This document shows, piece after piece, positions 19,934 through 34,400 of a DNA stretch of 54,287 nucleotides. Source of the DNA: Pseudomonadota bacterium. GTDB taxonomy: Bacteria; Desulfobacterota; QYQD01; JAZDGK01. Location of the stretch: assembly GCA_043806955.1 (NCBI GenBank), contig JAZDGK010000066.1, positions 1 through 54,287 of the forward strand. Direction: 5' to 3'. The stretch's first letter is position 1. The number at the start of each line of letters is the position of its first letter. Below the pieces are notes generated by a model. That model was not told the origin of the DNA and did no database searches. It worked only from the letters and a program-made list of their open reading frames with translations. A program made the position numbers and the translations under genes.

Positions 19934-20040
19934 ACTCTTGGTGGCCTGATGGTTTTGAGTGTTCTTGGATAGATTTTCCTGAGTTCCTGTTTTCCTGATT
20001 CAAATATTTTTGGTCTTAATTCGCGTTCATTCGTAGTTGA

Positions 20041-20270
20041 GAGGGTGTCTAAAAACTCTCAATTTTGTTTCAAGGTCAAGGAAGGCGAGGATTCTAACCC
20101 TTGAAGGCTGGGATGCTGGGAGGCGAGAAGGCTGAGAGGCAATCCCGGCGGGTCAGCTTTCTGGCTTCGGCTTCCCAGCCTCCTGGCTTCCTAGCTTCCT
20201 GGCCTTCTGAGGATTAGAATCCGAGCCTGACGCAGAGATTGGACAAAAGGGAGAGTTTTTAGACACCCTC
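20041..20270. repeat. RF family palindromic MITE-like element (230 bp)
   Basis: TIR gagggtgtctaaaaactctc / gagagtttttagacaccctc. TGA lies on both flanks. A second copy lies at 46627-46833. Confidence 0.85.
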
Positions 20271-20277
20271 TGAGGTT

Positions 20278-21387
20278 ATGGATAGTCCCGGGCTCTACAT
20301 TCACGTTCCTTTTTGCCGGACGAAATGTCCGTACTGTGATTTCTATTCGGTCACATCCACGGGCCGCATATCCGCCTGGCTCGATGCGCTGGAGAAGGAG
20401 GCCATCCTCTACAAGGATGATTTTGATCCTTTTGATTCCCTGTATCTGGGGGGAGGAACTCCGAGTCTGCTCGGTCAAGCAGAGCTTACCAGGCTTGCAG
20501 GCGGTCTGTTTCGTACCCTGGCTTTTTCCCCGGATACGGAATTCACCATCGAAGCTAATCCCGACGATATCGATGCAGACAAGCCCGCAGTAATGCGTGA
20601 CCTTGGGATAAACCGGTTCAGCCTGGGTGCACAGTCCTTTAGTGAAAAGGATTTGCTCTACCTGAAGCGAAGGCATTCCGTGGGCCAGACGGAGAAAGCG
20701 CTCCGATCGATTCGGCGAGCCGGATTCAAAAACATTGGAATCGACCTGATTTACGGCTTCGAAGGTCAGACGGAGAAGCGCTGGATGGAGACTATGGCGC
20801 GGGTACTTGAGTTCGAGCCTGAGCATATATCATGTTATCAGATGACCTTCGAACCGGGCACACCGTTTACCAGAATGAACGAAAATGGTCGAATCAAACC
20901 ATTAGGTGCAAGCAGGGAAAGGGCTTTTTCCGTCCTCACTTCTCGTTTTCTGACCGAACACGGCTATATTCATTACGAAATATCAAACTATGCCCGAAGC
21001 GAAGAATTCCGTTCGCGTCATAACCAGAAATACTGGAACCATACGCCTTACCTTGGCCTTGGCCCTGCAGCGCATTCCTTCCGGAACGGCGAAAGATGGT
21101 GGAATCCCAGATCGGTCACTCGGTACTGCGAGGCCGTCCGGAATGGCCGCAGCCCGGTTGAGGCACGCGAAGTTCTTTCGCAGGAACAACTCCGGATGGA
21201 AACGGTCTTTCTCGGCTTTCGCACTCTCCGAGGCGTCGATTTGAAAGACCTTGGGCAGGATGCGGGAGTTCCGGCCATTCTCTCCCGTCTGAAGGCATCA
21301 AAACTGATAAAGGTCGAAGGAGAGAGGATTTACCCCACCCTGAAAGGGTTTCTGATCGCCGACAGCCTTCCGCTCCTATTCGCCTGA
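20278..21387 (+). CDS. hemW: radical SAM heme chaperone HemW (HemN-like)
   Basis: LYIHVPFCRTKCPYCDF radical SAM motif and HemN-like length (369 aa). The position after lepA is the usual synteny. Confidence 0.9.
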   Translation: MDSPGLYIHVPFCRTKCPYCDFYSVTSTGRISAWLDALEKEAILYKDDFDPFDSLYLGGGTPSLLGQAELTRLAGGLFRTLAFSPDTEFTIEANPDDIDADKPAVMRDLGINRFSLGAQSFSEKDLLYLKRRHSVGQTEKALRSIRRAGFKNIGIDLIYGFEGQTEKRWMETMARVLEFEPEHISCYQMTFEPGTPFTRMNENGRIKPLGASRERAFSVLTSRFLTEHGYIHYEISNYARSEEFRSRHNQKYWNHTPYLGLGPAAHSFRNGERWWNPRSVTRYCEAVRNGRSPVEAREVLSQEQLRMETVFLGFRTLRGVDLKDLGQDAGVPAILSRLKASKLIKVEGERIYPTLKGFLIADSLPLLFA

Positions 21388-21599
21388 CCTCGCGTTCGGC
21401 CGTTTCAGCAATTCTGCAATCTGCAGCTTTCCCGGCCCGCCGGAGGCCGGTTATACAGACGCTCAAAAAATAGTTTTTGACCGGATCGCTTTCTTAAGTT
21501 AGAATTATTCATTGACGATACATCTTTGTGGTCTGCCGGCCATCGCCTGTGGTCAGTTCCGGCACAGGATAAAACGGTTCTGGAACTCTTCGATCTTCA

Positions 21600-22820
21600 G
21601 TGATTGGCAGCATGGAGCACCTTATTCGATACATATGGCCGTCCATCAAGGATTCGCACGACGCCGGAGAGGCCGCCTTCCAGGGGGTCGCTGCCGCAGC
21701 AGCTTGTATACTACTGTCGTTCAGTGGGGCACACTCCAGTATCATAGGAATACCCCTTCTGGACCGGACGGGCGTATTCATGGTCGCCGATGCCGTTTTC
21801 TTTGCCGTAATAGCCTTAGGCATATACAGGATGTCCCGAGCCGCGGCTGTCGCAGGAGCTGCTTTTTTCCTGCTCGACAAGTCGATCGCGTTCGCGTCCT
21901 GCGGGCTCTTCCATAGTGTCGCGGCGGTAGCTGTGCTTTTCAGCTACATGAACTCCATAAGAGGAACATTCGCCTATCATATCTTTCAACCCAAACGAAA
22001 GACCGATTCTCGTCGCGGGCTGTCGACTATTATGAAGAGACTGGAATCCCATGCGTCCGGTCATCTGGTCCGGCTCAAAGCGGTCCTCAATTCGCGAATT
22101 CAGCTCCAAAGAATCGGGGCAATAGCACTCGCGCTGCTTGCCCCCTTAATTCTGATCACCAGTACGGTTGAAAACCATGACCAGCCGAAAATAAGTGAAC
22201 AACCACATTCTCCCAGGATGACAATGCAGCAGGCTCTCGACATGTGGATGAACAGCAGGGAGAAGCTGCCTCCTGATTGCCGTGAACTCGCGGATCTTGT
22301 ACAGACAAAGCTCTATTGGAACGAAATAAACGAAATCCACAAAGAGCTTCTGGATATAGAATCTCTCTCAAAAATGGCTGATAATCCGCTTATTCCGTTG
22401 CGTGAGGCCATAATGAACTCAGTCAACCGTTCTCTTTTTACCGCCGCCATCATGAATCTCGATTACGAACGAAAAAACAGAATACAAAGGAAACTGGCAT
22501 ATACCGACGACATGCTCGGGTTCGAGCATGTCTCAAATCTGTTCATCTATAATATCCTGCGTTTCTACTCTATGAAAAAGTACAATGATGGAGCTGCGGA
22601 AGACTGGTTTACGTTCTATGTAAAGACCGCCCACTCGAGTGTTATGACGAAAATAGCTGCTTTCAGCAGCGGCATGTCCAAAGCCGGACGTTCTACTGTT
22701 TTCTCAGGAACCCGGCAGCTTGTGGCACATCATATAAAAGAGAAGCTCCTCCACGCCCCTCCCGGAATGCCGTTCGGAAAGGAAGGGACCTCCGAGGTCA
22801 CCCATTCCGCACGGCTTTAG
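21600..22820 (+). CDS. hypothetical membrane protein with an unrecognised C-terminal soluble domain
   Basis: The N-terminal roughly 120 aa contain several hydrophobic helices, with one more TM near aa 180. I found no recognisable motifs. The start could be 21612. Confidence 0.55.
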   Translation: MIGSMEHLIRYIWPSIKDSHDAGEAAFQGVAAAAACILLSFSGAHSSIIGIPLLDRTGVFMVADAVFFAVIALGIYRMSRAAAVAGAAFFLLDKSIAFASCGLFHSVAAVAVLFSYMNSIRGTFAYHIFQPKRKTDSRRGLSTIMKRLESHASGHLVRLKAVLNSRIQLQRIGAIALALLAPLILITSTVENHDQPKISEQPHSPRMTMQQALDMWMNSREKLPPDCRELADLVQTKLYWNEINEIHKELLDIESLSKMADNPLIPLREAIMNSVNRSLFTAAIMNLDYERKNRIQRKLAYTDDMLGFEHVSNLFIYNILRFYSMKKYNDGAAEDWFTFYVKTAHSSVMTKIAAFSSGMSKAGRSTVFSGTRQLVAHHIKEKLLHAPPGMPFGKEGTSEVTHSARL

Positions 22821-22831
22821 GTATCCAGAAA

Positions 22832-23006
22832 ATGCTAGTATACCGTGCATAGGTCAATTCCCAATATCGAATGTCCAATGCTCAATGTCCAACGTCCAAT
22901 GTCCAAGGGACCCTCTCCTGGTTGGAAATTGGTTATTGAGCATTGATCATTGGACATTGATCCTAAGATGCTGGTATCGTGGAAGCCTCTAAGTCGGGCA
23001 GGCTCC
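22832..23006. repeat. RE family element plus RA right-end fragment
   Basis: gtccaatg-rich palindrome homologous to 42597-42744. It ends in ctaagtcgggcaggctcc, which is an RA terminus. Confidence 0.75.
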
Positions 23007-23226
23007 TGGACCGGCAAAGATGGGCGTCTTCATCACGAATCTTTTGTCGGGGTTGAAGAAACTCAAGAAACTCTTGCATTTTGCCGAACATAAGCTATAT
23101 AGAGTTTATAATAGATAAATCAAACAGTTCAACGATGAGATAGGTCCTGGGTGAAACCGGCCCGTCCCATACGTTGACACCAACTCAAAAAGGAAATCGT
23201 CAGATCCGGTTCATCCGGGTAGAATT

Positions 23227-24540
23227 ATGCATCCCGAGTCGATTGTACTGCCTCAATTCGTATCAAACCCTGCAGAAAACTTGCCCCCAAGGATCATTCC
23301 ACGGCCGGAACATCCCATATCACGCAAAGATATCGATCCGGACGCCCTCAAGGTACTCTACAGATTGAAACATCATGGATTCCTGGCATATCTGGTCGGC
23401 GGAAGTGTCAGGGATCTTTTCCTCGGGAAAAGACCAAAGGATTTCGACATAGCCACCGATGCCCGCCCAAGCCAGATTAAAGACCTTTTCGGTAACAGCC
23501 GTTTGATCGGCAAGAGATTCAGGCTGGTTCAGGTTGTTTTTCGAGGAGGCAAAGTAGTTGAGGTATCCACATTTCGGCGCCGTTCAGAGTTCGAAGAAGA
23601 GGAATGTGCACTGGCCAGTAATAACAGCTACGGCACTCCTTCCGAAGATGCCTGGCGCCGCGATCTTACCGTTAACGCCCTTTTTTACAATATAGAAGAC
23701 TTTTCCGTGGTGGACTACGTTGGAGGCGTGCAGGATCTCAAGGAAGGGATCATCAGAATAGTCGGAGACCCGGATATTCGTTTGGCCCGGGATCCAGGGC
23801 GTATTATCCGGGCACTGCGCCATGCGGCCCGTACAGGCTTTGTAATAGAAGAAAAGACCTTTAGAGCTATTGAAAAACATCGTGACGGCATTTGGCTCTG
23901 CCCGATATCAAGAATTCGCGATGAATGGCTCAAGGACTTCATGAGTGAGAGTGTTGCGCCGTGCATTCACCAGATGATCAAGACAAAGTTCCTCTATTCG
24001 CTCTTCCCCTTTTATGAGCCCGTTCTTCAACAGGAAAATAACGTCTCTTTCCTTTTGTCACTGCTTGCCAGAATGGATGAACTCCATTCTCAGGGAGTCC
24101 GCCTCGACGAGACCTTCAAATTTGCGTTGTTTCTTCTTCCGTGGTTCCACTTTTCCTATCCGGGAGACGCATCCGCTTCTAAGCCACTATCTCCGTGGTT
24201 TACCGAAGCAAAACGCCAGGCGGTGCATTCCGTTCTCGGCGCTATGGACATAAAAAGATCGGTTCGTGAGAATGCGGCTTACATTCTGGCGGCACAATCT
24301 GTCCTTTCGGACATAATCGACAAAGAAGAATTGCCTCATCGCCTCAGACCCCGCCGTTATCCGGTCGATGCGATAAAACTCTTCCTGCTGGCCTCGGAGG
24401 CCCGGGGGGTATCGTTCCCACCCGAATCGATATCGCTTTTGTACAGAGGGGCCCGGGGTTCACGGAAAGGCACCCCCATGCCCAGGCCGAAAAAAACCAG
24501 AAAGCGCTTCCGGCCAAAAAGAACCGATCCCGCAGAATAG
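23227..24540 (+). CDS. pcnB: poly(A) polymerase / tRNA nucleotidyltransferase family
   Basis: YLVGGSVRDLFLGKRPKDFDIATDA nucleotidyltransferase motif and a basic C-terminal tail. Confidence 0.85.
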   Translation: MHPESIVLPQFVSNPAENLPPRIIPRPEHPISRKDIDPDALKVLYRLKHHGFLAYLVGGSVRDLFLGKRPKDFDIATDARPSQIKDLFGNSRLIGKRFRLVQVVFRGGKVVEVSTFRRRSEFEEEECALASNNSYGTPSEDAWRRDLTVNALFYNIEDFSVVDYVGGVQDLKEGIIRIVGDPDIRLARDPGRIIRALRHAARTGFVIEEKTFRAIEKHRDGIWLCPISRIRDEWLKDFMSESVAPCIHQMIKTKFLYSLFPFYEPVLQQENNVSFLLSLLARMDELHSQGVRLDETFKFALFLLPWFHFSYPGDASASKPLSPWFTEAKRQAVHSVLGAMDIKRSVRENAAYILAAQSVLSDIIDKEELPHRLRPRRYPVDAIKLFLLASEARGVSFPPESISLLYRGARGSRKGTPMPRPKKTRKRFRPKRTDPAE

Positions 24541-24589
24541 CCCCTGCCATAAGCTCCTACTCAAGCCGGTTTTGTGCCCAATAAGAAAT

Positions 24590-24723
24590 GAATGTCGAAT
24601 ATCGAACAAGGAATTTCGATTTATGAAGTTCCCTGGTTATTCTCGTCCTTAACTTTAGGCACTTTAGGCACTTCTTTCATCATCCTTCGACATTCATCAT
24701 TCCTTGTTCGACATTCGACATTC
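24590..24723. repeat. RK palindromic element
   Basis: Arms are gaatgtcgaatatcgaacaaggaat / attccttgttcgacattcgacattc. It sits between the convergent pcnB and kdsB genes. Confidence 0.7.
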
Positions 24724-24760
24724 TTCGAGGGTGTCCCGAGATTCTCAGCCTTGTTCCAGG

Positions 24761-25579
24761 TCAAGGAAGGCGGGGATTGCAAGGGTGACCGGCCAATATC
24801 CTTTCTTTCACCCTCTCAAGGTCCGCCGGTGTATCTACCTCGATTGAATCATAGGGAGTAAGCACCGTCCTGATCCGGTAGCCGTGTTCAAGGGCGCGAA
24901 GCTGTTCAAGCTTCTCCGATCCCTCCCAGATGCCGACGGGGAGCTTCACAAATTTCGCGAGGAAGTCTTTCCGATAGGCGTAAAACCCAAGATGTTTGTA
25001 GTAGAACGGGAGATTTCCTTCCCCGCGGAAATAGGGAATCCTTGCCCGGGAAAAATAAAGAGCATCTCCGTTTTTATCAAACACGGTCTTTACATGGTTT
25101 GGATCATCCAGCTCTTCCGGCCGTATGATCCGGTAGATAAGTGTGGACATGGGAATGGCCGGGTCTTTCAAAAGAGGATCGACGAGGTCTTTTATTATTG
25201 CCGGCGGGAACAAGGGCTGGTCTCCCTGGATGTTTACCACTATATCCTGGTCGTTCAGTGCGAGTCTTTCCGCCGCTTCCGCAATACGGTCGGTTCCTGA
25301 AGGATGATCATCTCGGGTAATGACTGCTTCTCCTCCAAACGAAACGGTTGTTGAGAAGATGCGTTCATCATCGGTAGCGATGACGACTCTGGAGACATCA
25401 TTTGCCTCCTTTGCCCGCTCATATACATGCTGGATCATCGACTTCCCGAGAATGTCCGCCAGGGGTTTGCCGGGAAACCGTGAGGATTGATACCGGGCCG
25501 GAATAATAGCCACGATATTCGGAAAAGAATCGTTGCGAGTTGCGAGTTGCGAGTTGCGGGTTATATCATTTCTAGACAT
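24761..25579 (-). CDS. kdsB: 3-deoxy-manno-octulosonate cytidylyltransferase
   Basis: IVAIIPARYQSSRFPGKPL motif. The start is uncertain: the ATG at 25579 adds a leader that reads through a heptamer array, and a GTG giving MAIIPARY is possible. Confidence 0.85.
   Translation of the reverse strand: MSRNDITRNSQLATRNDSFPNIVAIIPARYQSSRFPGKPLADILGKSMIQHVYERAKEANDVSRVVIATDDERIFSTTVSFGGEAVITRDDHPSGTDRIAEAAERLALNDQDIVVNIQGDQPLFPPAIIKDLVDPLLKDPAIPMSTLIYRIIRPEELDDPNHVKTVFDKNGDALYFSRARIPYFRGEGNLPFYYKHLGFYAYRKDFLAKFVKLPVGIWEGSEKLEQLRALEHGYRIRTVLTPYDSIEVDTPADLERVKERILAGHPCNPRLP
25532..25562. repeat. heptamer tandem array (gttgcga)x4
   Basis: Direct reading of the sequence. It lies in the kdsB 5' region. 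Confidence 0.8.
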
Positions 25580-25761
25580 AGCCTGTCTGATCTTGTGGTC
25601 CAAATTCTTCTTATTCACCGCCCGCTCACCAGGAGCCTGTCGGACTTACCTGTCTGCGCGACCATTCGTCGCCGGCCGTCCGATTGTTCTTGCTTTCGTA
25701 TCCCTGCAAGAAAAACTCTTCTCGGCGTTCTCCGCGTGCTCGGCGGTAAATACTTTTCTGG

Positions 25762-26973
25762 TTATATCGCTTCGGCTGCTTTTTCAATAGCGCTTAGGAT
25801 CTGATTCATCCGGTCTTTTGAGATCTTTATCGGTATTTGGTAGACGAGACACCGGTCCATTATTTTTGCCGATTCGGGCAGCGCATCCGGCCGGTAACGA
25901 AGTTCACCCTCGGCACCTCCATGCTTGAACGGCCGGCCATTCTCGGCCAGTGTAGAACCCGCGAGAAGATGCTCCCACTTTGGGTAGTAGTGCCATGTAT
26001 TTTCAGAAAAATAGACGGCGCCGGCGCCGTTCTCTCTGAGCACTTTGTTGAATCTCTGAGTCTTCTCTGCATCCGGCAGGAAAAATGCGAGAAACGTTGC
26101 CGTATCGCCGGTCTCGTCCACCAGGCGCCGGAACGTTACGCCCTTGACTTTTTTCAGGGCCTTCTTGATACGGCTCTTATTCTTCTTCTGAAGGGCAATT
26201 ATTTTGTCCAGCTTTGCGAGCTGAGCCAGCCCGATCGCCCCCTGGAGCTCCATCATACGATAATTAAACCCTGTATAACTCCGGCCCTCACCCCCTCTGC
26301 CTCCGGGATTCGGCACGTGGTCATGGCCGTGATCATGGTATTCGCAGGCTTTCCGGTAAAGATCGGGATCGCCGGTAAGGACCATGCCCCCTTCACCGGT
26401 CGTTATCGTCTTTACGGGGTCGAATGAAAAGGTTCCCATCTCCCCGAACGTGCCCAGGAACTGCGTTCCTATCTTTCCCCCTGCGGCCTGAGCCGTATCT
26501 TCGATTACTTTCAGATTATGGCGCCGGGCAATCGCCGTAATCTCTTGTATTCGGGCCTGTGCACCGAGCATGTGTACCGGGATGACAGCCTTGGTTCGCG
26601 GAGTGATCTTCTTTTCCATATCCGCCGGGGCCATATTCAGTGTCTCGTCTATCTCCGCAAATACCGGGACTGCACCGGCGTCAAGTATTGCCTCCCAGGT
26701 AGCGACAAACGTGAATCCCTGGGTGATGACCTCATCGCCGGCGCCTATGCCCAGCGCAGCCATGGCCACTTTCAGGGCCGCAGTTCCGGAAGAAACTGCC
26801 AGGGCATGCCGTGCGTTACAATAACGCGCAAAAGCCTCTTCAAACTCCCGTACTTTGTAAATGCCTTTGCGCTCATTCGGAAACTCATAACGAAAAAGGA
26901 CGCCTGTCTTCAAGACATCCTCGATCTGTTTTCTTTCTTCCCTGCCGAATACCTCATACCCGGGCATTTTCAA
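25762..26973 (-). CDS. DegT/DnrJ/EryC1/StrS-family PLP aminotransferase
   Basis: 403 aa, with FSFDPVKTITTGEGG as the catalytic lysine region. Confidence 0.9.
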   Translation of the reverse strand: MKMPGYEVFGREERKQIEDVLKTGVLFRYEFPNERKGIYKVREFEEAFARYCNARHALAVSSGTAALKVAMAALGIGAGDEVITQGFTFVATWEAILDAGAVPVFAEIDETLNMAPADMEKKITPRTKAVIPVHMLGAQARIQEITAIARRHNLKVIEDTAQAAGGKIGTQFLGTFGEMGTFSFDPVKTITTGEGGMVLTGDPDLYRKACEYHDHGHDHVPNPGGRGGEGRSYTGFNYRMMELQGAIGLAQLAKLDKIIALQKKNKSRIKKALKKVKGVTFRRLVDETGDTATFLAFFLPDAEKTQRFNKVLRENGAGAVYFSENTWHYYPKWEHLLAGSTLAENGRPFKHGGAEGELRYRPDALPESAKIMDRCLVYQIPIKISKDRMNQILSAIEKAAEAI

Positions 26974-27088
26974 ACTCCTTTCCTGTAAAACGAGTTGTTC
27001 TCCTCACCACTCAGTACCTGAATCCCAAATCCGAAATGGGTACTCCCAACTTCCATCTTTTGGCCTTCCCCGCGTCTTTCTTTTTCCC

Positions 27089-27127
27089 ATTCCGAAATCC
27101 CAAATCCGCAATCCGCAATCCGCAATC
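27089..27127 (-). repeat. heptamer array (ccgcaat type) next to the ADH stop
   Basis: attccgaaatcccaaatccgcaatccgcaatccgcaatc ends 3 nt before the TGA at 27131-27133. Confidence 0.8.
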
Positions 27128-27130
27128 GAA

Positions 27131-28294
27131 TCACTCCATCCCCTCGTAAGCCAACTCGTAAAGCCTTTCCACTTCCTCCACGGTCACGGTCCGCGGATTA
27201 TTTGCTATCGGACGTGCAACCGTCATGGCGATTTTGGCCATCTTCGGTATATCTTTTTTCGGGATTCCAAGATCTTTGATTGTGCTCGGAATCCCGATAT
27301 CCGCATTCAATATTGCCAGGGTTTCCGAAGCAAGCTCAGCGGCTCCCCGGGCCGAATATGCGCCGGTATCTTCTCCCAGGATTTCCGCTATCCGGGCAAA
27401 CTTTTCCAGATCTCCCACCAGGTTGAAAAGAGCTACGTAAGGAAGCAGAACAGCGTTGGCCAGGCCATGAGGAATACGATGCATCCCGCCGAGCGGATAA
27501 GCCATGGCGTGCACGAGTCCGACCCCGGCAACGGCCAGAGAAAGCCCCCCGAAAAGGCTGCCCAGGAGCATCTTCTCCCTTGCCTCAATATCGTCTCCCC
27601 GGCAGCATGCCCGCCGGATATTCTGGGATATGAGGCGCATGCCCTCTGTGGCCCAAAGGTCTGAAAAGGGCTGAGCCGCTCTTGAAACATAAGACTCGAG
27701 GGCGTGGGTAAAGGCATCAATGCCGGTAAAGGCTGTCACCAGCGGAGGTACTGACACGGTAAGAGCGGGATCGAGAATGGCCAGCTCGGGATAAAGATAC
27801 TCACCGTTTATCCCCCCTTTGGACTTGGTCTTCTCATTGATGAAGACCGCTGTGAAGCTTACTTCGCTACCCGTACCCGCGGTCGTCGGTATCATTATCT
27901 TAGGAATGCCGGGTTTTTCGATCTTGTTAAGCCCGACGTAATCAACCGCCTTCCCTTTGTTCGTCACGAGAACGGCAACGGCTTTAGCTACATCCATTGC
28001 TGAACCGCCTCCTGCCCCGATTACGCAGTCACATCCTTCCTTACGGGCCAAGGCAGCCGCACTATCCGCAATCTTAAGGCCCGGTTCCGGATCCACGTCT
28101 TCGAACAGGACATACTGAATTCCTGCTCCCTTGAGCGGATCCTCAAGTTTTTCCAGGAGGTCCGACCGGCGGAGTGACGGATCGGCAACCAGAAAAGCCT
28201 TGGCGCCCTTCAGACTCTTGACCTCATCTCCCAGCCCGCTGGTCTCACCAACACCGAATCTTATGGAAGTTGCAAGTTTGAATGAGAATTTCAT
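27131..28294 (-). CDS. iron-containing alcohol dehydrogenase family protein
   Basis: GAGGGSAMDVAKA together with His-rich metal motifs (HALESY, HAMAYPLGGMHRIPHG). Start chosen at MKFSFKL. Confidence 0.9.
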   Translation of the reverse strand: MKFSFKLATSIRFGVGETSGLGDEVKSLKGAKAFLVADPSLRRSDLLEKLEDPLKGAGIQYVLFEDVDPEPGLKIADSAAALARKEGCDCVIGAGGGSAMDVAKAVAVLVTNKGKAVDYVGLNKIEKPGIPKIMIPTTAGTGSEVSFTAVFINEKTKSKGGINGEYLYPELAILDPALTVSVPPLVTAFTGIDAFTHALESYVSRAAQPFSDLWATEGMRLISQNIRRACCRGDDIEAREKMLLGSLFGGLSLAVAGVGLVHAMAYPLGGMHRIPHGLANAVLLPYVALFNLVGDLEKFARIAEILGEDTGAYSARGAAELASETLAILNADIGIPSTIKDLGIPKKDIPKMAKIAMTVARPIANNPRTVTVEEVERLYELAYEGME

Positions 28295-28393
28295 TTCTAA
28301 CGTTCCTTTTCTGTGTAATTTCACTTAGTTATTGGCACAGAGCGAACAGTATAACAGAGTCTCTTTTCCTTTTCAAACCAAAACTGGCCGGAG

Positions 28394-28556
28394 GGTGCAA
28401 GTAGAAGTGGGACTATGGCCGCTTGGAACACTGTTGAATTAAGCCAACGTTGAGAAAACATCCCAGTGGCACAGCCGAGGGTGGCTGTGCTGCATGACCA
28501 TGACCTGAATCTATAAAAGGAGACCTGACATCCAGTCCCACTTATACTTGCACCCT
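28394..28556. repeat. RH family palindromic element
   Basis: TIR ggtgcaagtagaagtgggact / agtcccacttatacttgcacc. The core contains the gtggcacagccg...cggctgtg hairpin. A second copy lies at 40883-41046. Confidence 0.85.
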
Positions 28557-28606
28557 GGAAAACCAGCGTGTTTGACATCTGACCCCGCATCCGATAACCT
28601 GTTCTC

Positions 28607-28700
28607 ATGTTTTCCTTCCGAAAGATCCTCTGTCCCACTGACTACAGCGAGCCGTCATACGAGGCCTTGGCCGGAGCTGCGGAGCTGGTCCGCCGAATAG
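28607..28700 (+). pseudogene. universal stress protein N-terminal fragment
   Basis: MFSFRKILCPTDYSEPSYEALAGAAELV resembles a UspA N-terminus. The rest of the ORF is not USP-like. Confidence 0.35.
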
Positions 28701-28842
28701 GCGGGACGGGGGGGTGTAGCGGCCAAGACTTCACTTCCTCGACTCTTATTTCAACAGCATTGCCCCCCCTCCGGACAGCACATCCGATCTCGAACAAAAC
28801 CGTTTTCAGATACGATCTGTCACCCAAAAAACCAGAATACTA

Positions 28843-29022
28843 AGTACAGATCCACACAAATGGGTATCCAAAATGGGTTCGTAACACGAGACGCGGATAG
28901 GCGGGGTTTTCTAACCCCGCCCACAATGGACGTCTCGGTCGCCGGGCGGCCCCCTGGAAAGGGCCGCCTATCCGACGGGGGGATTTCAGCATAATGGATA
29001 CCTTCTTATGTGGAGCTGTACT
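28843..29022. repeat. RI family palindromic element
   Basis: Ends are agtacagatccacac / tgtggagctgtact. The core ataggcggggttttctaaccccgcc...ggccgcctatcc is shared with 46437-46577. Confidence 0.8.
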
Positions 29023-29120
29023 AAGTCAGATCCGGTTCGTACCGATAAGCTATACGAGCGGCTATATACAGATTAGTCCAAACGGGCTTGCGTTTGGATA
29101 GGATCGCAGGGGGTGGAACC

Positions 29121-30719
29121 ATGAAGGTAACTTGTCTTGGTGCAGCGCGGACCGTGACCGGATCCTCATTTCTCCTGGAGACTGATGACGCACGTATTCT
29201 TCTGGATTGCGGCATGTTTCAGGGCGGGAAAGAGATACAGAGAAGAAATGATACATTCCACCATTCAGCAGGAGACTTGGACTTCTTACTCCTGACCCAC
29301 GCCCATATCGACCACAGCGGCTTGGTGCCGAAGCTGGTCAAGGAAGGCTTCAAGGGCCGGATCGTCAGCACAAAGGCCACCTTCGAGCTATGCCAGATCA
29401 TGCTCCGGGACAGCGCCCATATCCAGGAGATAGAGGCGGAGTGGGACCACAAACGAAACAAGCGCCAAGGGAAGCGAGGCATGCCTCCGATCCCCTTGTA
29501 CACGCTAAGAGATGCGGAATCAAGTCTCAACTTCTTCAAGCCCGTGAACTATGGGGAAATGATCAAGCTGACTTCCAAAATCTCGGCGAGATTTCTTGAC
29601 GCGGGGCATATCCTTGGCTCCGCCTTTATTGAAATATGGGACCATAACGAAAATCCACCTCTAAAAATAGTCTTCTCTGGCGATATCGGCCAAAAGGGAC
29701 AGATGCTCGTTTCCGATCCAACTCCGATTAAGGAGGCGGATTTCCTCTTTATGGAGTCCACCTATGGTAATCGCCTCCACAAGAGCAAGGAGAGAACACA
29801 CAAAGAGCTTCTCAGCGCCATTAGAGGAGCAGTGAAGGACCGTGAAAAGGTCATAATCCCTGCCTTCGCGGTGGAACGAACCCAGGAGCTCATCTACATC
29901 CTGAGCCGTTTTTATCACGAAGGACTCTTGGCGGAAGTGCCCATTTACATAGACAGCCCTCTCGCCATTTCAGCTACGGAGGTCTTTCGCAATAATCCAC
30001 AGTTCTTGAATGACCAGACAAACATACTTCTGGACAGGGGGGACCACCCGCTCATACTGCCGACGCTTTCCTTCACTCGCACCACTGAGGAATCCCGCGC
30101 GGTCAACAATGGCGAGGGGCCTTGCATAATCATTGCCGCAAGCGGGATGTGCGATGCCGGCCGGATAAAACACCATCTCCGCAATAACCTGTGGCGCCCC
30201 GGCGCACATATCGTCTTTGTAGGTTTTCAGGCGAAAGGGACTCCGGGCCGGCAGATCGTAGACGGTGCACCCAAAGTCAAAATCTTCGGTGAAGAAATTG
30301 CGGTAAAAGCCAATATACATACACTTGGCGGCTTTTCAGCCCATGCGGATCAGGGTGAACTCCTCCGGTGGCTCGGGAATTTTACAAACCCCGCTCTTAA
30401 GGTTTTTGTTGTCCACGGAGAAGAAGAGGCCAGCCTGGAGTTTGTAAAGGCCATCGAACGCACGTACTGGCTGGAAGCCAAAGCCCCGGAATGGCTGCAG
30501 ACGATTGAGCTCTCGCGCGGCCCCCGAAAGCCCGAGATGGAAAAACCCCAGTCTGTTCAAGTCTTACCGAATATAGAGAAGATTGAGCTCGAAATCCACA
30601 GACTCAAAAACAAGCTTTACAGCAAAGGGCAGACTGACCCGTCGGAAAAGGAAGAAGCACGGGATAAGCTGAAAGCTATGAACGCAGAACTGCAAGGCAT
30701 CCTGGAAATACTCGAATAA
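29121..30719 (+). CDS. MBL-fold beta-CASP RNA-metabolising hydrolase
   Basis: LLTHAHIDHSG (HxHxDH) motif, beta-CASP region and a C-terminal HGE motif, plus a roughly 70-aa charged tail. Confidence 0.85.
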   Translation: MKVTCLGAARTVTGSSFLLETDDARILLDCGMFQGGKEIQRRNDTFHHSAGDLDFLLLTHAHIDHSGLVPKLVKEGFKGRIVSTKATFELCQIMLRDSAHIQEIEAEWDHKRNKRQGKRGMPPIPLYTLRDAESSLNFFKPVNYGEMIKLTSKISARFLDAGHILGSAFIEIWDHNENPPLKIVFSGDIGQKGQMLVSDPTPIKEADFLFMESTYGNRLHKSKERTHKELLSAIRGAVKDREKVIIPAFAVERTQELIYILSRFYHEGLLAEVPIYIDSPLAISATEVFRNNPQFLNDQTNILLDRGDHPLILPTLSFTRTTEESRAVNNGEGPCIIIAASGMCDAGRIKHHLRNNLWRPGAHIVFVGFQAKGTPGRQIVDGAPKVKIFGEEIAVKANIHTLGGFSAHADQGELLRWLGNFTNPALKVFVVHGEEEASLEFVKAIERTYWLEAKAPEWLQTIELSRGPRKPEMEKPQSVQVLPNIEKIELEIHRLKNKLYSKGQTDPSEKEEARDKLKAMNAELQGILEILE

Positions 30720-31320
30720 TGTTTGAACCGCATGCGCTCAGGGGTCGCAGGAGCCTGTTGCCCGAATTGACTTCCCCTCTCCCCGCGGGGAGAGGAAATC
30801 ATGCCTGCATTCAATAGCCTGCGCCGCACACTCCCGGCGCTTTCCCGCAGGCACGATTTATGTATAGTGGGAAGTGCCAGCCCGAATGCGCCCCCTCCGT
30901 GCCCCCGCACCCGCTTCCGCATGTGGAAACTTTCTTCCATCAAATGAGAATCTAACTACACATTTAATGGAAGTGTATTTCCTAGAATCATCTCCCTATC
31001 CGTCATAACCTTCGGATGCGTCGTGATAATAATCTAACCAGAATCCGGCATACTCGTTGCAAGTGAATACAGGCGTCTGTATGGAACCGGGGAGGGTGCC
31101 CCGCATCGTTCGGGACTGTTTGTTCATACGGGATTCGGTATTCGGAGATATTACTCCGGTACGATCGTTTCCGGCCGACAGCAATTGCAGAACGAAGGAC
31201 TTTGCGGGAATCAGGATCAAAGGCATTTCCTCCCGGATAATGCGGGCAACTTCTCCTCACAGGTTTTCATCATCAATCGGACGAATCAAAGAGGTTTGTT
31301 GGGCGCATAAGACGGCGCCA

Positions 31321-31389
31321 GGAGCCCGTCGGGCTTGGGGATCGTCACCAGGGATGGGCGATAGATGATGTCTAAGTCTGACAGGCTCC
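31321..31389. repeat. RA element, internally deleted (69 bp)
   Basis: ggagcccgtcgggcttggggatcgtcacc...tctaagtctgacaggctcc retains only the terminal stems. Confidence 0.7.
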
Positions 31390-31491
31390 TGGACTATTCC
31401 GAAAGAAGGGGGGGTGATCATCGTACAGGCTGCTATTTGTTGACAACGACTTGGAGATAAATTTTAAAATGCAAAAAGGAAAGGAATAATT

Positions 31492-34400
31492 ATGAGTAGA
31501 GCGCAAATCGTATACTATCTGAAGTTTCTGCTGGTTTTGCTCGTTACCGTTCTAATGGGTGCGGGTGCAGGGGGTTCTTCCGTTCTTGCAGCCAATCTCG
31601 ACGTTCCCGGTGATTTCAGCACCATTCAGGCCGCCGTTGACGCCTCCGTGGATGGAGACGTGGTAATCGTTGCACCGGGGACGTACACCGAGAACATCGA
31701 TTTTCTCGGAAAAGCGATCGCCGTGAGAAGCGCTCAGCCGAACAATCCGGCCATTGCAGATGCCACCGTGATTGACGGGGGCGGAGTGGGAGCGGCAGTT
31801 ACTTTCAAAGGCGGCGAGGGAGTCAGCTCGGTATTGAACGGGCTCACCATAGAAAACGGAAATGACGGCTGCGGTGGCGGGATTTCCTGCCAGCAGTCTT
31901 CACCTTCAATTATGAATTGCCGCATTAGGCAGAATCGAGGTCAGCACGGAGGCGGCATCGGCTGCCTGTCCGGGGCAGCCCCTGTTATCGTAAATTGCCT
32001 GATATACTCCAATGAAGCTGACCTGACCGGGGGGGGCATATACGCGGATGCAGACTCCTGTCCGGTTATCACTAACTGCGTCATAGCCGATAATGACACG
32101 TCGTTATTCGGCGGCGGAGGCCTTTATTGCGTCGAAGCCATTGTTACTAACTGCATTGTCTGGGGAAATTACCCGAATGGCCTCTTCGCCTCCGAAGATG
32201 CGGTTATGTTCTCGGATATTCAGGAAAGCAAGGGTGGGTCGGGCAATATCAGCGCGGACCCCGTTTTTGTGAATGCGGCTGCCGGAGACTATCACGTGGC
32301 CGAAGACTCTCCCTGCATCGATGCGGGCAGCAATGAGGCTCCCGGTCTCCCGGCTACCGACAAGGACGGTAATCCTCGTATTCTCAACGTAGTCGTAGAC
32401 ATGGGTGCATTTGAAGCGCCTGAACCGGAAATCGATCCGGACGTTATCACGGTTACCATCCAGGCCGGAGATCCGGAGGCGGCTGAACCGGATAAAGGTC
32501 CGGTCAACACCGGGAAGTTCACCGTTGTCCGTGAAGGAAACATCAACTCCGAATTGATCGTGAAATATAAGGTGACCGGTACGGCAACTGCCGGCGCCGA
32601 CTACACCCAACTGTCAGGGACTGTGACCATCCCGGCTAAAAAAACCGAGGCGGACATTATTGTCACCCCCCTCCAGGACCAGGACTATGAGGGTGACGAG
32701 ACGGTAGTAGTCACTCTTACAACGAGCGTTTCTTACACCATAGGTTCACCTGGAAATGCAGAGGTCGTAATCAAAGACAACGACCGTCCGACCATAACTA
32801 TTCAGACTACCGACGCTGAAGCGGCCGAGCCCGGCAATGGTCCCGTCAATACGGGAAAATTCACTCTGACGCGTACCGGGAAGACGGACGCCGAGTTCGC
32901 CGTAACCATAAAGGTCGCCGGCACGGCGATAAATGGGACCGATTACAGCGAAGTCGCAGACACGGTAACCTTTCCGGCAAAAAAGGCTGATGCCGTCATT
33001 ATCATAACCCCTTCCCAGGATACGGATTTCGAAGGCGACGAAACAGTAGTTGTCTCGCTTGTAAGCAACCCTTCGTACATTATCGGTTCGCCAAGCAGTG
33101 GGACTGTGACGATTAAGGATAATGACCGGCCGGACGTCAGCATCGTGGCCACGGACTCTGATGCCGCTGAACCGTCAAAGGGTCCGGTTAATACAGGGCG
33201 ATTTACCGTCAGCCGTACGGGAATTACGAGTTCCGAGCTTGTTGTGACCTACAAGGTCTCCGGAACAGCCGCAGCGGGTACCGACTATGCCGAGCTGGCC
33301 GGTTCCGTAACTATTCCGGCCAAGAAAGCCGAAGCGACCATCACGGTAACCCCGCTCCACGATGCGGATTTTGAAGGCGACGAAACGGTAGTAGTGACAC
33401 TTACAAGCAGCGTGTCTTATACTATCGCATCACCAAGCACTGATACGGTAACGATCAAAGACAATGATCTCGCCGTCGTAACCCTCGCGGCCACGGACGC
33501 TGATGCGGCCGAACCGGGTACCGGACCGGTCAATACCGGCAAGTTTACGGTCTATCGCACGGGAAACACCACCTCTGATCTGTCTGTAACGTACAAGGTT
33601 GCAGGAACGGCTACGGCTGGAACCGATTATACTGAATTGACCGGTTCTGTAACCATACCGGCCAAAAAAACCGAGGCCGTGTTCACCGTGACACCTCTCC
33701 ATGATGTTGATTCTGAAGCGAACGAGACTGTTGTCGCTACGCTGACCGTGAGCGCGGCGTACGCGATCGGCGCCCCAAGCTCCGGTATGGTAGTAATCAA
33801 AGATAACGACCTGCCGGTGGTAACGGTCAAAGCCACTGATCCCGAAGCGGCTGAGCCTTTCAGAGGACCGGTTAACACCGGGAAATTTACCGTCTATCGC
33901 ACCGGAATTACGGCGACTGCGGTGACGGTGACTTACAAAGTTGCAGGAACGGCTACGGCTGGAACCGATTATGCCGAACTGGTGGGCTCCGTAGTCATAC
34001 CGCCCAGAAAGACCGACGCGATCATCGTAGTCACCCCTCTCAACGATCTCGATTGTGAAGGGAACGAGACGGTGGTTCTTACACTCACCGTTGCCGAGGG
34101 GTATACTGTCGGCACGCCGAGCAGCGATACCGTAACTATCATAGATAATGACATCCCGACTGTGACTGTTGCGGCCACAGATCCGGAAGCCTCCGAGCCG
34201 AGAGTGGGACCGCTCAACACCGGCAAATTCACGGTCACCCGCAACACCACGGGTCCGGCGATGACTGTAAACTACACCGTTGCCGGTTCTGCGGCAGCCG
34301 GGGCTGATTATACAGAGTTGGCCGGTTCTGTAACTATTCCTGCCGGCAAGAGCGAGATCAGTGTTACCGTATCTCCTCTTGCTGACACAGAAGTGGAAGG

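Follow-up and report, generated by a model that had tools for sequence, protein, structure and literature searches.

Contig 66 (JAZDGK010000066.1) of a 3.2-Mb metagenome-assembled genome (MAG) that is 86% complete spans 54,287 nucleotides and is referred to below as the window. It carries three co-oriented open reading frames (ORFs) on the minus strand, which encode an iron-type alcohol dehydrogenase (Fe-ADH), a DegT-family aminotransferase and KdsB, the CMP-Kdo synthetase (Kdo, 3-deoxy-D-manno-octulosonate). A sequence-only reading of this DNA had described the three genes and likened them to the pathway by which Shewanella makes 8-amino-3,8-dideoxy-D-manno-octulosonate (Kdo8N) for its lipopolysaccharide (LPS). 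The ORFs are indeed found at these positions, and the Pfam and NCBIfam families agree with the proposed identities. The nearest named homologs belong to MAGs of Thermodesulfobacteriota or 'Deltaproteobacteria', followed by Desulfobulbales, e.g., Desulfurivibrio. In the order ADH-kdnA-kdsB, the genes are:

27131-28294, minus strand: Fe-type (group III) ADH of 387 amino acids (aa), a member of the clade here denoted ADHx, assigned by family, fold, trees, KdnA linkage and metal ligands.
25762-26967, minus strand: KdnA-family aminotransferase of 401 aa, dependent on pyridoxal phosphate (PLP), assigned by PDB match, reciprocal match, tree and residues.
24761-25579, minus strand: kdsB, CMP-Kdo synthetase, with an uncertain start (25618, 25579 or 25513), assigned by profile NF003952 and the match to Shewanella KdsB.

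The aminotransferase (DegT_DnrJ_EryC1, PF01041; E = 7e-89) is, judging from sequence comparison, clearly a member of the KdnA family. Its top match among the PDB sequences is KdnA from Shewanella oneidensis (5k8b; E = 2.9e-105, 356 bits), and the second match, a perosamine synthetase (E = 4.8e-52, 181 bits), is ~175 bits below; conversely, a search of this genome with Shewanella KdnA has the window protein as its best hit. In a 60-row tree that also contained ArnB and WecE from Escherichia coli and the DegT paralogs from the same genome, the KdnA family, including Shewanella KdnA, forms a single clade (support 94/93). Thus, the reciprocal comparison with Shewanella KdnA that the sequence-only reading had called for comes out in its favor by score, reciprocity and phylogeny. 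The identity to KdnA from Shewanella xiamenensis is ~46%, and the window protein retains each of the 15 residues that the KdnA family keeps invariant and that are different or absent in a small outgroup set (5-6 sequences). These include R26, Y27, F29 and R33 of an N-terminal insert that is missing from the outgroups. The protein has the DegT/AAT type I fold, for which the PLP lysine K186 and the cofactor-binding D157 are conserved as well. The protein can be predicted to function as the transaminase that converts 8-oxo-Kdo to Kdo8N.

The dehydrogenase matches the Fe-ADH (PF00465) and ADH_Fe_C (PF25137) families (E = 3e-49 and 5e-52, respectively), retains the metal ligands D193, H197, H262 and H276 along with the GGGSxxD dinucleotide motif, and is the only true Fe-ADH of this genome. 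The fold, the GGGS motif and the Asp/His3 metal site are shared with FucO from E. coli, DhaT from Klebsiella and the Bacillus-type NAD-dependent methanol dehydrogenases, which show the highest raw similarity to it. Unlike these enzymes, however, the window ADH is linked to KdnA, falls into a clade with KdnB, the Kdo 8-oxidase of the Shewanella pathway and a member of Fe-ADH subfamily cd08184, and has Thr at the substrate-contact position. This residue, Thr148, and Asn163 are invariant in 55 rows of ADHx, KdnB and KdnB-like sequences (with the exception of one KdnB row at Asn163), and neither is found at these positions in any of 24 other Fe-ADHs. Thr148 aligns with N151 of FucO, where most other Fe-ADHs have I or V. 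In FucO, N151 hydrogen-bonds the hydroxyl next to the oxidized carbon (PMC10087678); by analogy, the hydroxyl of Kdo contacted by Thr148 would be that at C7.

For phylogenetic analysis, true KdnB sequences were taken from Shewanella loci with the order kdnA-kdnB-kdsB. In a 63-row tree that included the nearest Fe-ADHs not linked to KdnA (41-47% identity), FucO, EutG, AdhE and YqhD, the ADHx sequences group with those of KdnB and the KdnB-like proteins in a single clade (support 100/99), within which KdnB, on a stem of ~3 substitutions per site, is nested beside a single ADHx row. The grouping of ADHx with KdnB is retained (100/98) in a 78-row tree based on an L-INS-i alignment of the N-terminal 300 residues only, from which that nearest ADHx row had been left out. 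In both trees, the nearest ADHs not linked to KdnA, as well as FucO, EutG, AdhE and YqhD, fall outside the clade. The best explanation appears to be that ADHx is a slowly evolving clade, of which the fast-evolved KdnB of Shewanella is either the sister or an offshoot. We interpret the window ADH as a predicted Kdo 8-dehydrogenase that is functionally equivalent to KdnB. The KdnB-like clade (loci L164-L167; genomes G238, G085, G102 and G272), which is 41-44% identical to Shewanella KdnB and sister to true KdnB, is present in 10 genomes of the phylum. Because 8 of these 10 lack KdnA, its function is probably different.

To characterize the distribution of these genes, 401 genomes sampled across Thermodesulfobacteriota were searched, with cut-offs of E <= 1e-90 for KdnA and >= 47% identity for ADHx, and genes within 600 bp were counted as adjacent. 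KdnA is encoded in 108 of these genomes, from 58 of the 255 genera. Among the KdnA-positive genomes, 77 encode ADHx, which is adjacent to KdnA in 69, from 16 family codes; another 24 encode a KdnB-type protein (15 adjacent to KdnA, 9 unlinked); none encodes both; and 7 encode neither, at least two of these (G377 and G185) with KdnA at a contig end. Only three KdnA-negative genomes carry ADHx: in two of these, a fragmented KdnA lies 3-5 kb away, and in the third one, ADHx is at a contig end. The fragmented genes (G172:C54:100292-101452 and G311:C22:427337-428288) consist of two or three frames with internal stops at that distance from an intact ADHx, and reflect either pseudogenization or assembly frameshifts. 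Within the phylum, ADHx is the dominant KdnA partner; it is also the lineage closest to KdnB.

The gene order ADH-aminotransferase-kdsB is kept in 8 of 8 genomes of the same taxonomic order, which, together with the ADH-KdnA adjacency in 69 genomes, indicates that the arrangement is not due to chance. The neighborhood is thus conserved in relatives, as the sequence-only reading would require, and neither of the outcomes that this reading had named as refuting was observed. That reading had also regarded a dehydrogenase-aminotransferase pair directly upstream of kdsB as the expected arrangement; the linkage holds, whereas the gene order is not that of Shewanella (ADH-kdnA-kdsB here versus kdnA-kdnB-kdsB). 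In two families (f18 and f105), which lack ADHx, KdnA of the window subclade occurs together with a true KdnB, 59-62% identical to the Shewanella protein, that is not linked to it. This natural swap implies that KdnB can serve a window-type KdnA. No ADH adjoins KdnA in genomes G024 and G025, where the flanking genes encode TatC, PanC and other proteins; a true KdnB is encoded elsewhere in G024, and ADHx elsewhere in G025. Genome G076 (family f32, genus g33) carries KdnA and, on another contig, a KdnB-type gene, which may represent a recent swap or a binning mix; six of its sampled congeners have ADHx adjacent to KdnA, and a seventh (G383) has neither. In Desulfurivibrio alkaliphilus, the order is ADHx-KdnA-(methyltransferase)-KdsB, the extra gene inside the cluster encoding an S-adenosylmethionine (SAM)-dependent methyltransferase.

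The third gene of the cluster scores well above the curated cut-offs of both KdsB profiles (NF003952, 320 versus 193 bits; TIGR00466, 241 versus 155 bits), and its product is the best match of Shewanella KdsB in this genome (54%). Five relatives were checked, and none has a kdsB besides the one linked to the cluster; the same holds for three of five KdnB-type genomes, including S. xiamenensis. The possibility that it is a dedicated second copy was considered and ruled out by these sole copies in the five relatives and S. xiamenensis. The window KdsB can be predicted to activate Kdo8N, Kdo or both. The genome additionally encodes KdsA and two homologs of the Kdo transferase WaaA (PF04413; G000:C265:1564-2112 and G000:C34:6768-7316). 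Two further KdsB-family genes were detected. One (G000:C184:14325-15101, also L141:7326-8102) is 42% identical to the window KdsB and lies in an O-antigen-like cluster together with genes for a Wzy_C protein, an HpcH/HpaI-type aldolase, a methyltransferase, a B12-radical SAM enzyme, an epimerase and a 2-hydroxyacid dehydrogenase; this cluster may encode a pathway for a different ulosonic acid. The second gene (G000:C62:1536-2069) is truncated, on a 2.4-kb contig.

In the pathway that we propose, the Fe-ADH, probably using NAD(P)+ and a bound metal, would oxidize free Kdo at its C8 hydroxyl, yielding the 8-aldehyde; the KdnA-family aminotransferase, by orthology, would turn the resulting 8-oxo-Kdo into Kdo8N; and KdsB would form the CMP-activated sugar, which a WaaA transferase would place on lipid A. 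We consider it likely that the three genes form an operon that makes Kdo8N for LPS, with ADHx standing in for KdnB. For these organisms, Kdo8N is predicted on the basis of homology and genomic context; the interpretation of the dehydrogenase-aminotransferase pair put forward in the sequence-only reading is supported, at this level, by the orthology of KdnA, the clade that unites ADHx with KdnB, and the mutual exclusivity of these two partners.

Several observations weigh against this assignment. The top PDB and NCBIfam matches of the window ADH are methanol, 1,3-propanediol, lactaldehyde, choline and sulfoacetaldehyde dehydrogenases, with E values from 1e-70 to 1e-81 for the first three; KdnB (5k8c) is just 34th among the PDB matches (E = 2.4e-30), at 30-32% identity over an alignable stretch of only the first ~290 residues. 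ADHx and KdnB barely align over their last ~100 residues, and, at 387 aa, the window ADH has neither the length (~356 aa), nor the best-hit relation, nor the gene order that identify KdnB by similarity. All NCBIfam matches of the window ADH are below the curated cut-offs, so that no equivalog cut-off is reached. The placement of KdnB, with its stem of ~3 substitutions per site, is uncertain: for groups named after the tree was seen, the approximately unbiased (AU) test rejected a position of KdnB outside ADHx and its near relatives (p = 0.0235) and did not reject monophyly of ADHx without KdnB (p = 0.117), and KdnB is therefore either sister to ADHx or nested in it. With regard to the genome survey, the 47% identity threshold was chosen after the data were seen, and the counts are further limited by the incompleteness of MAGs and by relatedness among the genomes, which makes them non-independent; a KdnB-type gene was not found in the genome analyzed here, an absence that is not proven at 86% completeness. 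Finally, the internal spacers of 163 bp (ADH-kdnA) and 182 bp (kdnA-kdsB) leave co-transcription of the predicted operon unproven. The rank of KdnB among the PDB matches had at first led us to view the window enzyme as an unrelated Fe-ADH, i.e., a case of non-orthologous displacement, an interpretation that was dropped given that the trees join KdnB with ADHx. Hence the comparison of the dehydrogenase proposed in the sequence-only reading has a split outcome, negative by similarity and positive by phylogeny, where the enzyme shares one clade with KdnB and the nearest ADHs not linked to KdnA stay outside.

The alternative that fares best, unlikely as it seems to us, is that the ADH and the KdnA-like aminotransferase act on a related substrate or yield a further modified product, so that the final sugar would be similar but not identical to Kdo8N; examples would be a different ulosonic acid, Kdo-8-phosphate, CMP-Kdo or an N-acylated derivative. 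The distance of the window proteins from the characterized enzymes (only ~46% identity for KdnA and ~30% for KdnB), the poorly alignable C-terminal part of the dehydrogenases, the methyltransferase gene inside the Desulfurivibrio cluster and the extra KdsB-like and WaaA genes of this genome are all compatible with such a deviation. However, the window and Shewanella clades have all KdnA-specific residues in common, window-type KdnA is partnered with true KdnB in f18 and f105, and both types of cluster maintain the linkage to the sole, housekeeping kdsB, all of which argues for Kdo8N itself.

It also appears quite improbable that a long-branch artifact brings ADHx and KdnB together in the trees and that ADHx is an independently recruited paralog doing the job of KdnB. 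The long stem of KdnB and the AU tests, with a modest p value for groups that were chosen after the tree and a monophyly of ADHx that was not rejected, leave some room for this scenario. Long-branch attraction, however, would be expected to draw KdnB to the long branches of YqhD, L124 and L125 rather than to the short-branched ADHx; the grouping withstands the addition of taxa, a different alignment, restriction to the N-terminal domain and removal of the nearest ADHx row; and the two families share two derived active-site residues. The functional prediction is unchanged whether or not the grouping is an artifact. Least credible of all is the notion that the window ADH, the only true Fe-ADH of its genome, with catabolic dehydrogenases as its best PDB and NCBIfam matches, the latter all below the curated cut-offs, is a general catabolic alcohol or aldehyde oxidoreductase of the ethanol, propanediol or methanol type, with Kdo being oxidized by another enzyme or not at all, given that ADHx adjoins KdnA in genomes from so many families, is practically confined to genomes with KdnA, never co-occurs with KdnB, belongs to a clade with KdnB that leaves out the nearest free-standing ADHs, and has active-site substitutions that are common to KdnB only.

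The Kdo8N cluster of S. oneidensis, kdnA-kdnB-kdsB, has been described previously (Gattis et al., 2013, as cited in PMC4402001 and PMC5125639), and the structures of its two characteristic enzymes (5K8B for KdnA and 5K8C for KdnB) served for our comparisons. The window locus resembles that cluster in the tight linkage of a DegT/KdnA aminotransferase, an oxidoreductase of the group III Fe-ADH fold and KdsB, with the aminotransferases being orthologous, kdsB the main or only copy, and the oxidoreductases in one clade. The two differ in gene order and in the oxidoreductase, which has 387 aa in the window compared to 356 aa in Shewanella and is only ~30% identical; moreover, the window enzyme resembles an ordinary NAD-dependent Fe-ADH, and its host is an uncultured, anaerobic member of Thermodesulfobacteriota of the sulfate-reducer type, represented by a MAG. 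Shewanella KdnB reportedly binds NAD tightly and depends on O2.

In the literature consulted, Kdo8N has been described for Shewanella only ('exclusively', in a 2014 review); tolerance of polymyxin and bile salts has been connected with it there (PMC4402001). The sequence-only reading had pointed out that its proposal would place an aminated Kdo outside that genus. This would indeed be new chemically but is not new in sequence annotation because homologs of KdnA and KdnB are already present in many non-Shewanella genomes. The arrangement kdnA-kdnB-kdsB, a predicted Kdo8N pathway, is found in Corallincola, Paraferrimonas, Aliikangiella, Piscirickettsiaceae, Thiotrichales, Thiomicrospira and Desulfobacula, among others, and several Desulfobulbales-type homologs of KdnA are named 'Kdo8N transaminase' in the JGI annotation. 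Unlike these clusters from Gammaproteobacteria and Desulfobacterales MAGs, which have the Shewanella gene order and a true, fast-evolved KdnB (51-64% identical to the Shewanella protein), the window carries ADHx. What is new here is this variant, with a different gene order and an ordinary-looking Fe-ADH that databases label only 'iron-containing alcohol dehydrogenase'.

Beyond the coding sequences, four features were detected around and between the three genes:

28348-28376, minus strand: sigma-70-like promoter, TTGAAA, a 17-nt spacer and TG-TATACT, ~50 nt upstream of the ADH start; a candidate by consensus match alone.
27093-27127, minus strand: heptamer array of three gattgcg units and two degenerate units, starting 3 nt past the ADH stop, within the ADH-kdnA spacer.
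25532-25562, minus strand: heptamer array of four cgcaact units, in the kdnA-kdsB spacer or the 5' end of the kdsB ORF.
24495-24515, minus strand: terminator-like hairpin with a T run, downstream of kdsB and overlapping the 3' end of a convergent gene; a candidate by consensus match alone.

The promoter-like site matches the consensus at 10 of 12 positions, has an extended -10 TG and is the top site of the region. The two internal spacers are inflated because the heptamer arrays sit in them; in relatives, the ADH-kdnA gap varies from 22 to 185 bp. The ATG start of the ADH gene at 28294 is preceded by a ribosome-binding site, AAAGGAA. For the aminotransferase, the ATG at 26967, with AAAGGAG 8 nt upstream, is more likely to be the start than the TTG at 26973, 6 nt further upstream, that the sequence-only reading had adopted. 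The start of kdsB (GTG 25618, ATG 25579 or GTG 25513) is uncertain because heptamers occupy the 5' end of the ORF; if translation begins at 25579 or 25618, the cgcaact array is read as RNSQLATRN. The flanking genes, of the CCA/poly(A) polymerase family at one end and for a beta-CASP RNase at the other, are unrelated and oppositely oriented, suggesting that the three genes are a self-contained unit. The ADH gene and the divergent beta-CASP RNase gene are separated by a 790-bp non-coding gap (28295-29087), in which a 105-aa ORF (28321-28638) looks spurious. An Rfam scan of positions 20000-32000 detected no RNA family.

With regard to the origin of the pathway, we lean slightly toward a scenario in which the window ADH represents an ancestral-like, ordinary NAD-dependent Kdo 8-dehydrogenase from which Shewanella KdnB would have been derived by a burst of divergence, with Kdo8N-LPS being widespread, at about one fourth of the sampled genomes, among anaerobic Thermodesulfobacteriota, including Desulfurivibrio and other Desulfobulbales. 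ADHx would then be the conventional-looking counterpart of the unusual KdnB and could help to explain how the odd cofactor behavior of the latter originated. A simple annotation rule can be suggested, namely an Fe-ADH with Thr148 and Asn163 encoded beside kdnA, and cultured carriers such as Desulfurivibrio alkaliphilus make the prediction directly testable. If it is correct, aminated inner-core Kdo would be common in a large anaerobic phylum, for which the 'missing' first enzyme of the pathway would now be identified, and Kdo8N-LPS would be no peculiarity of Shewanella but a trait hidden by the bare 'alcohol dehydrogenase' label of that first enzyme.

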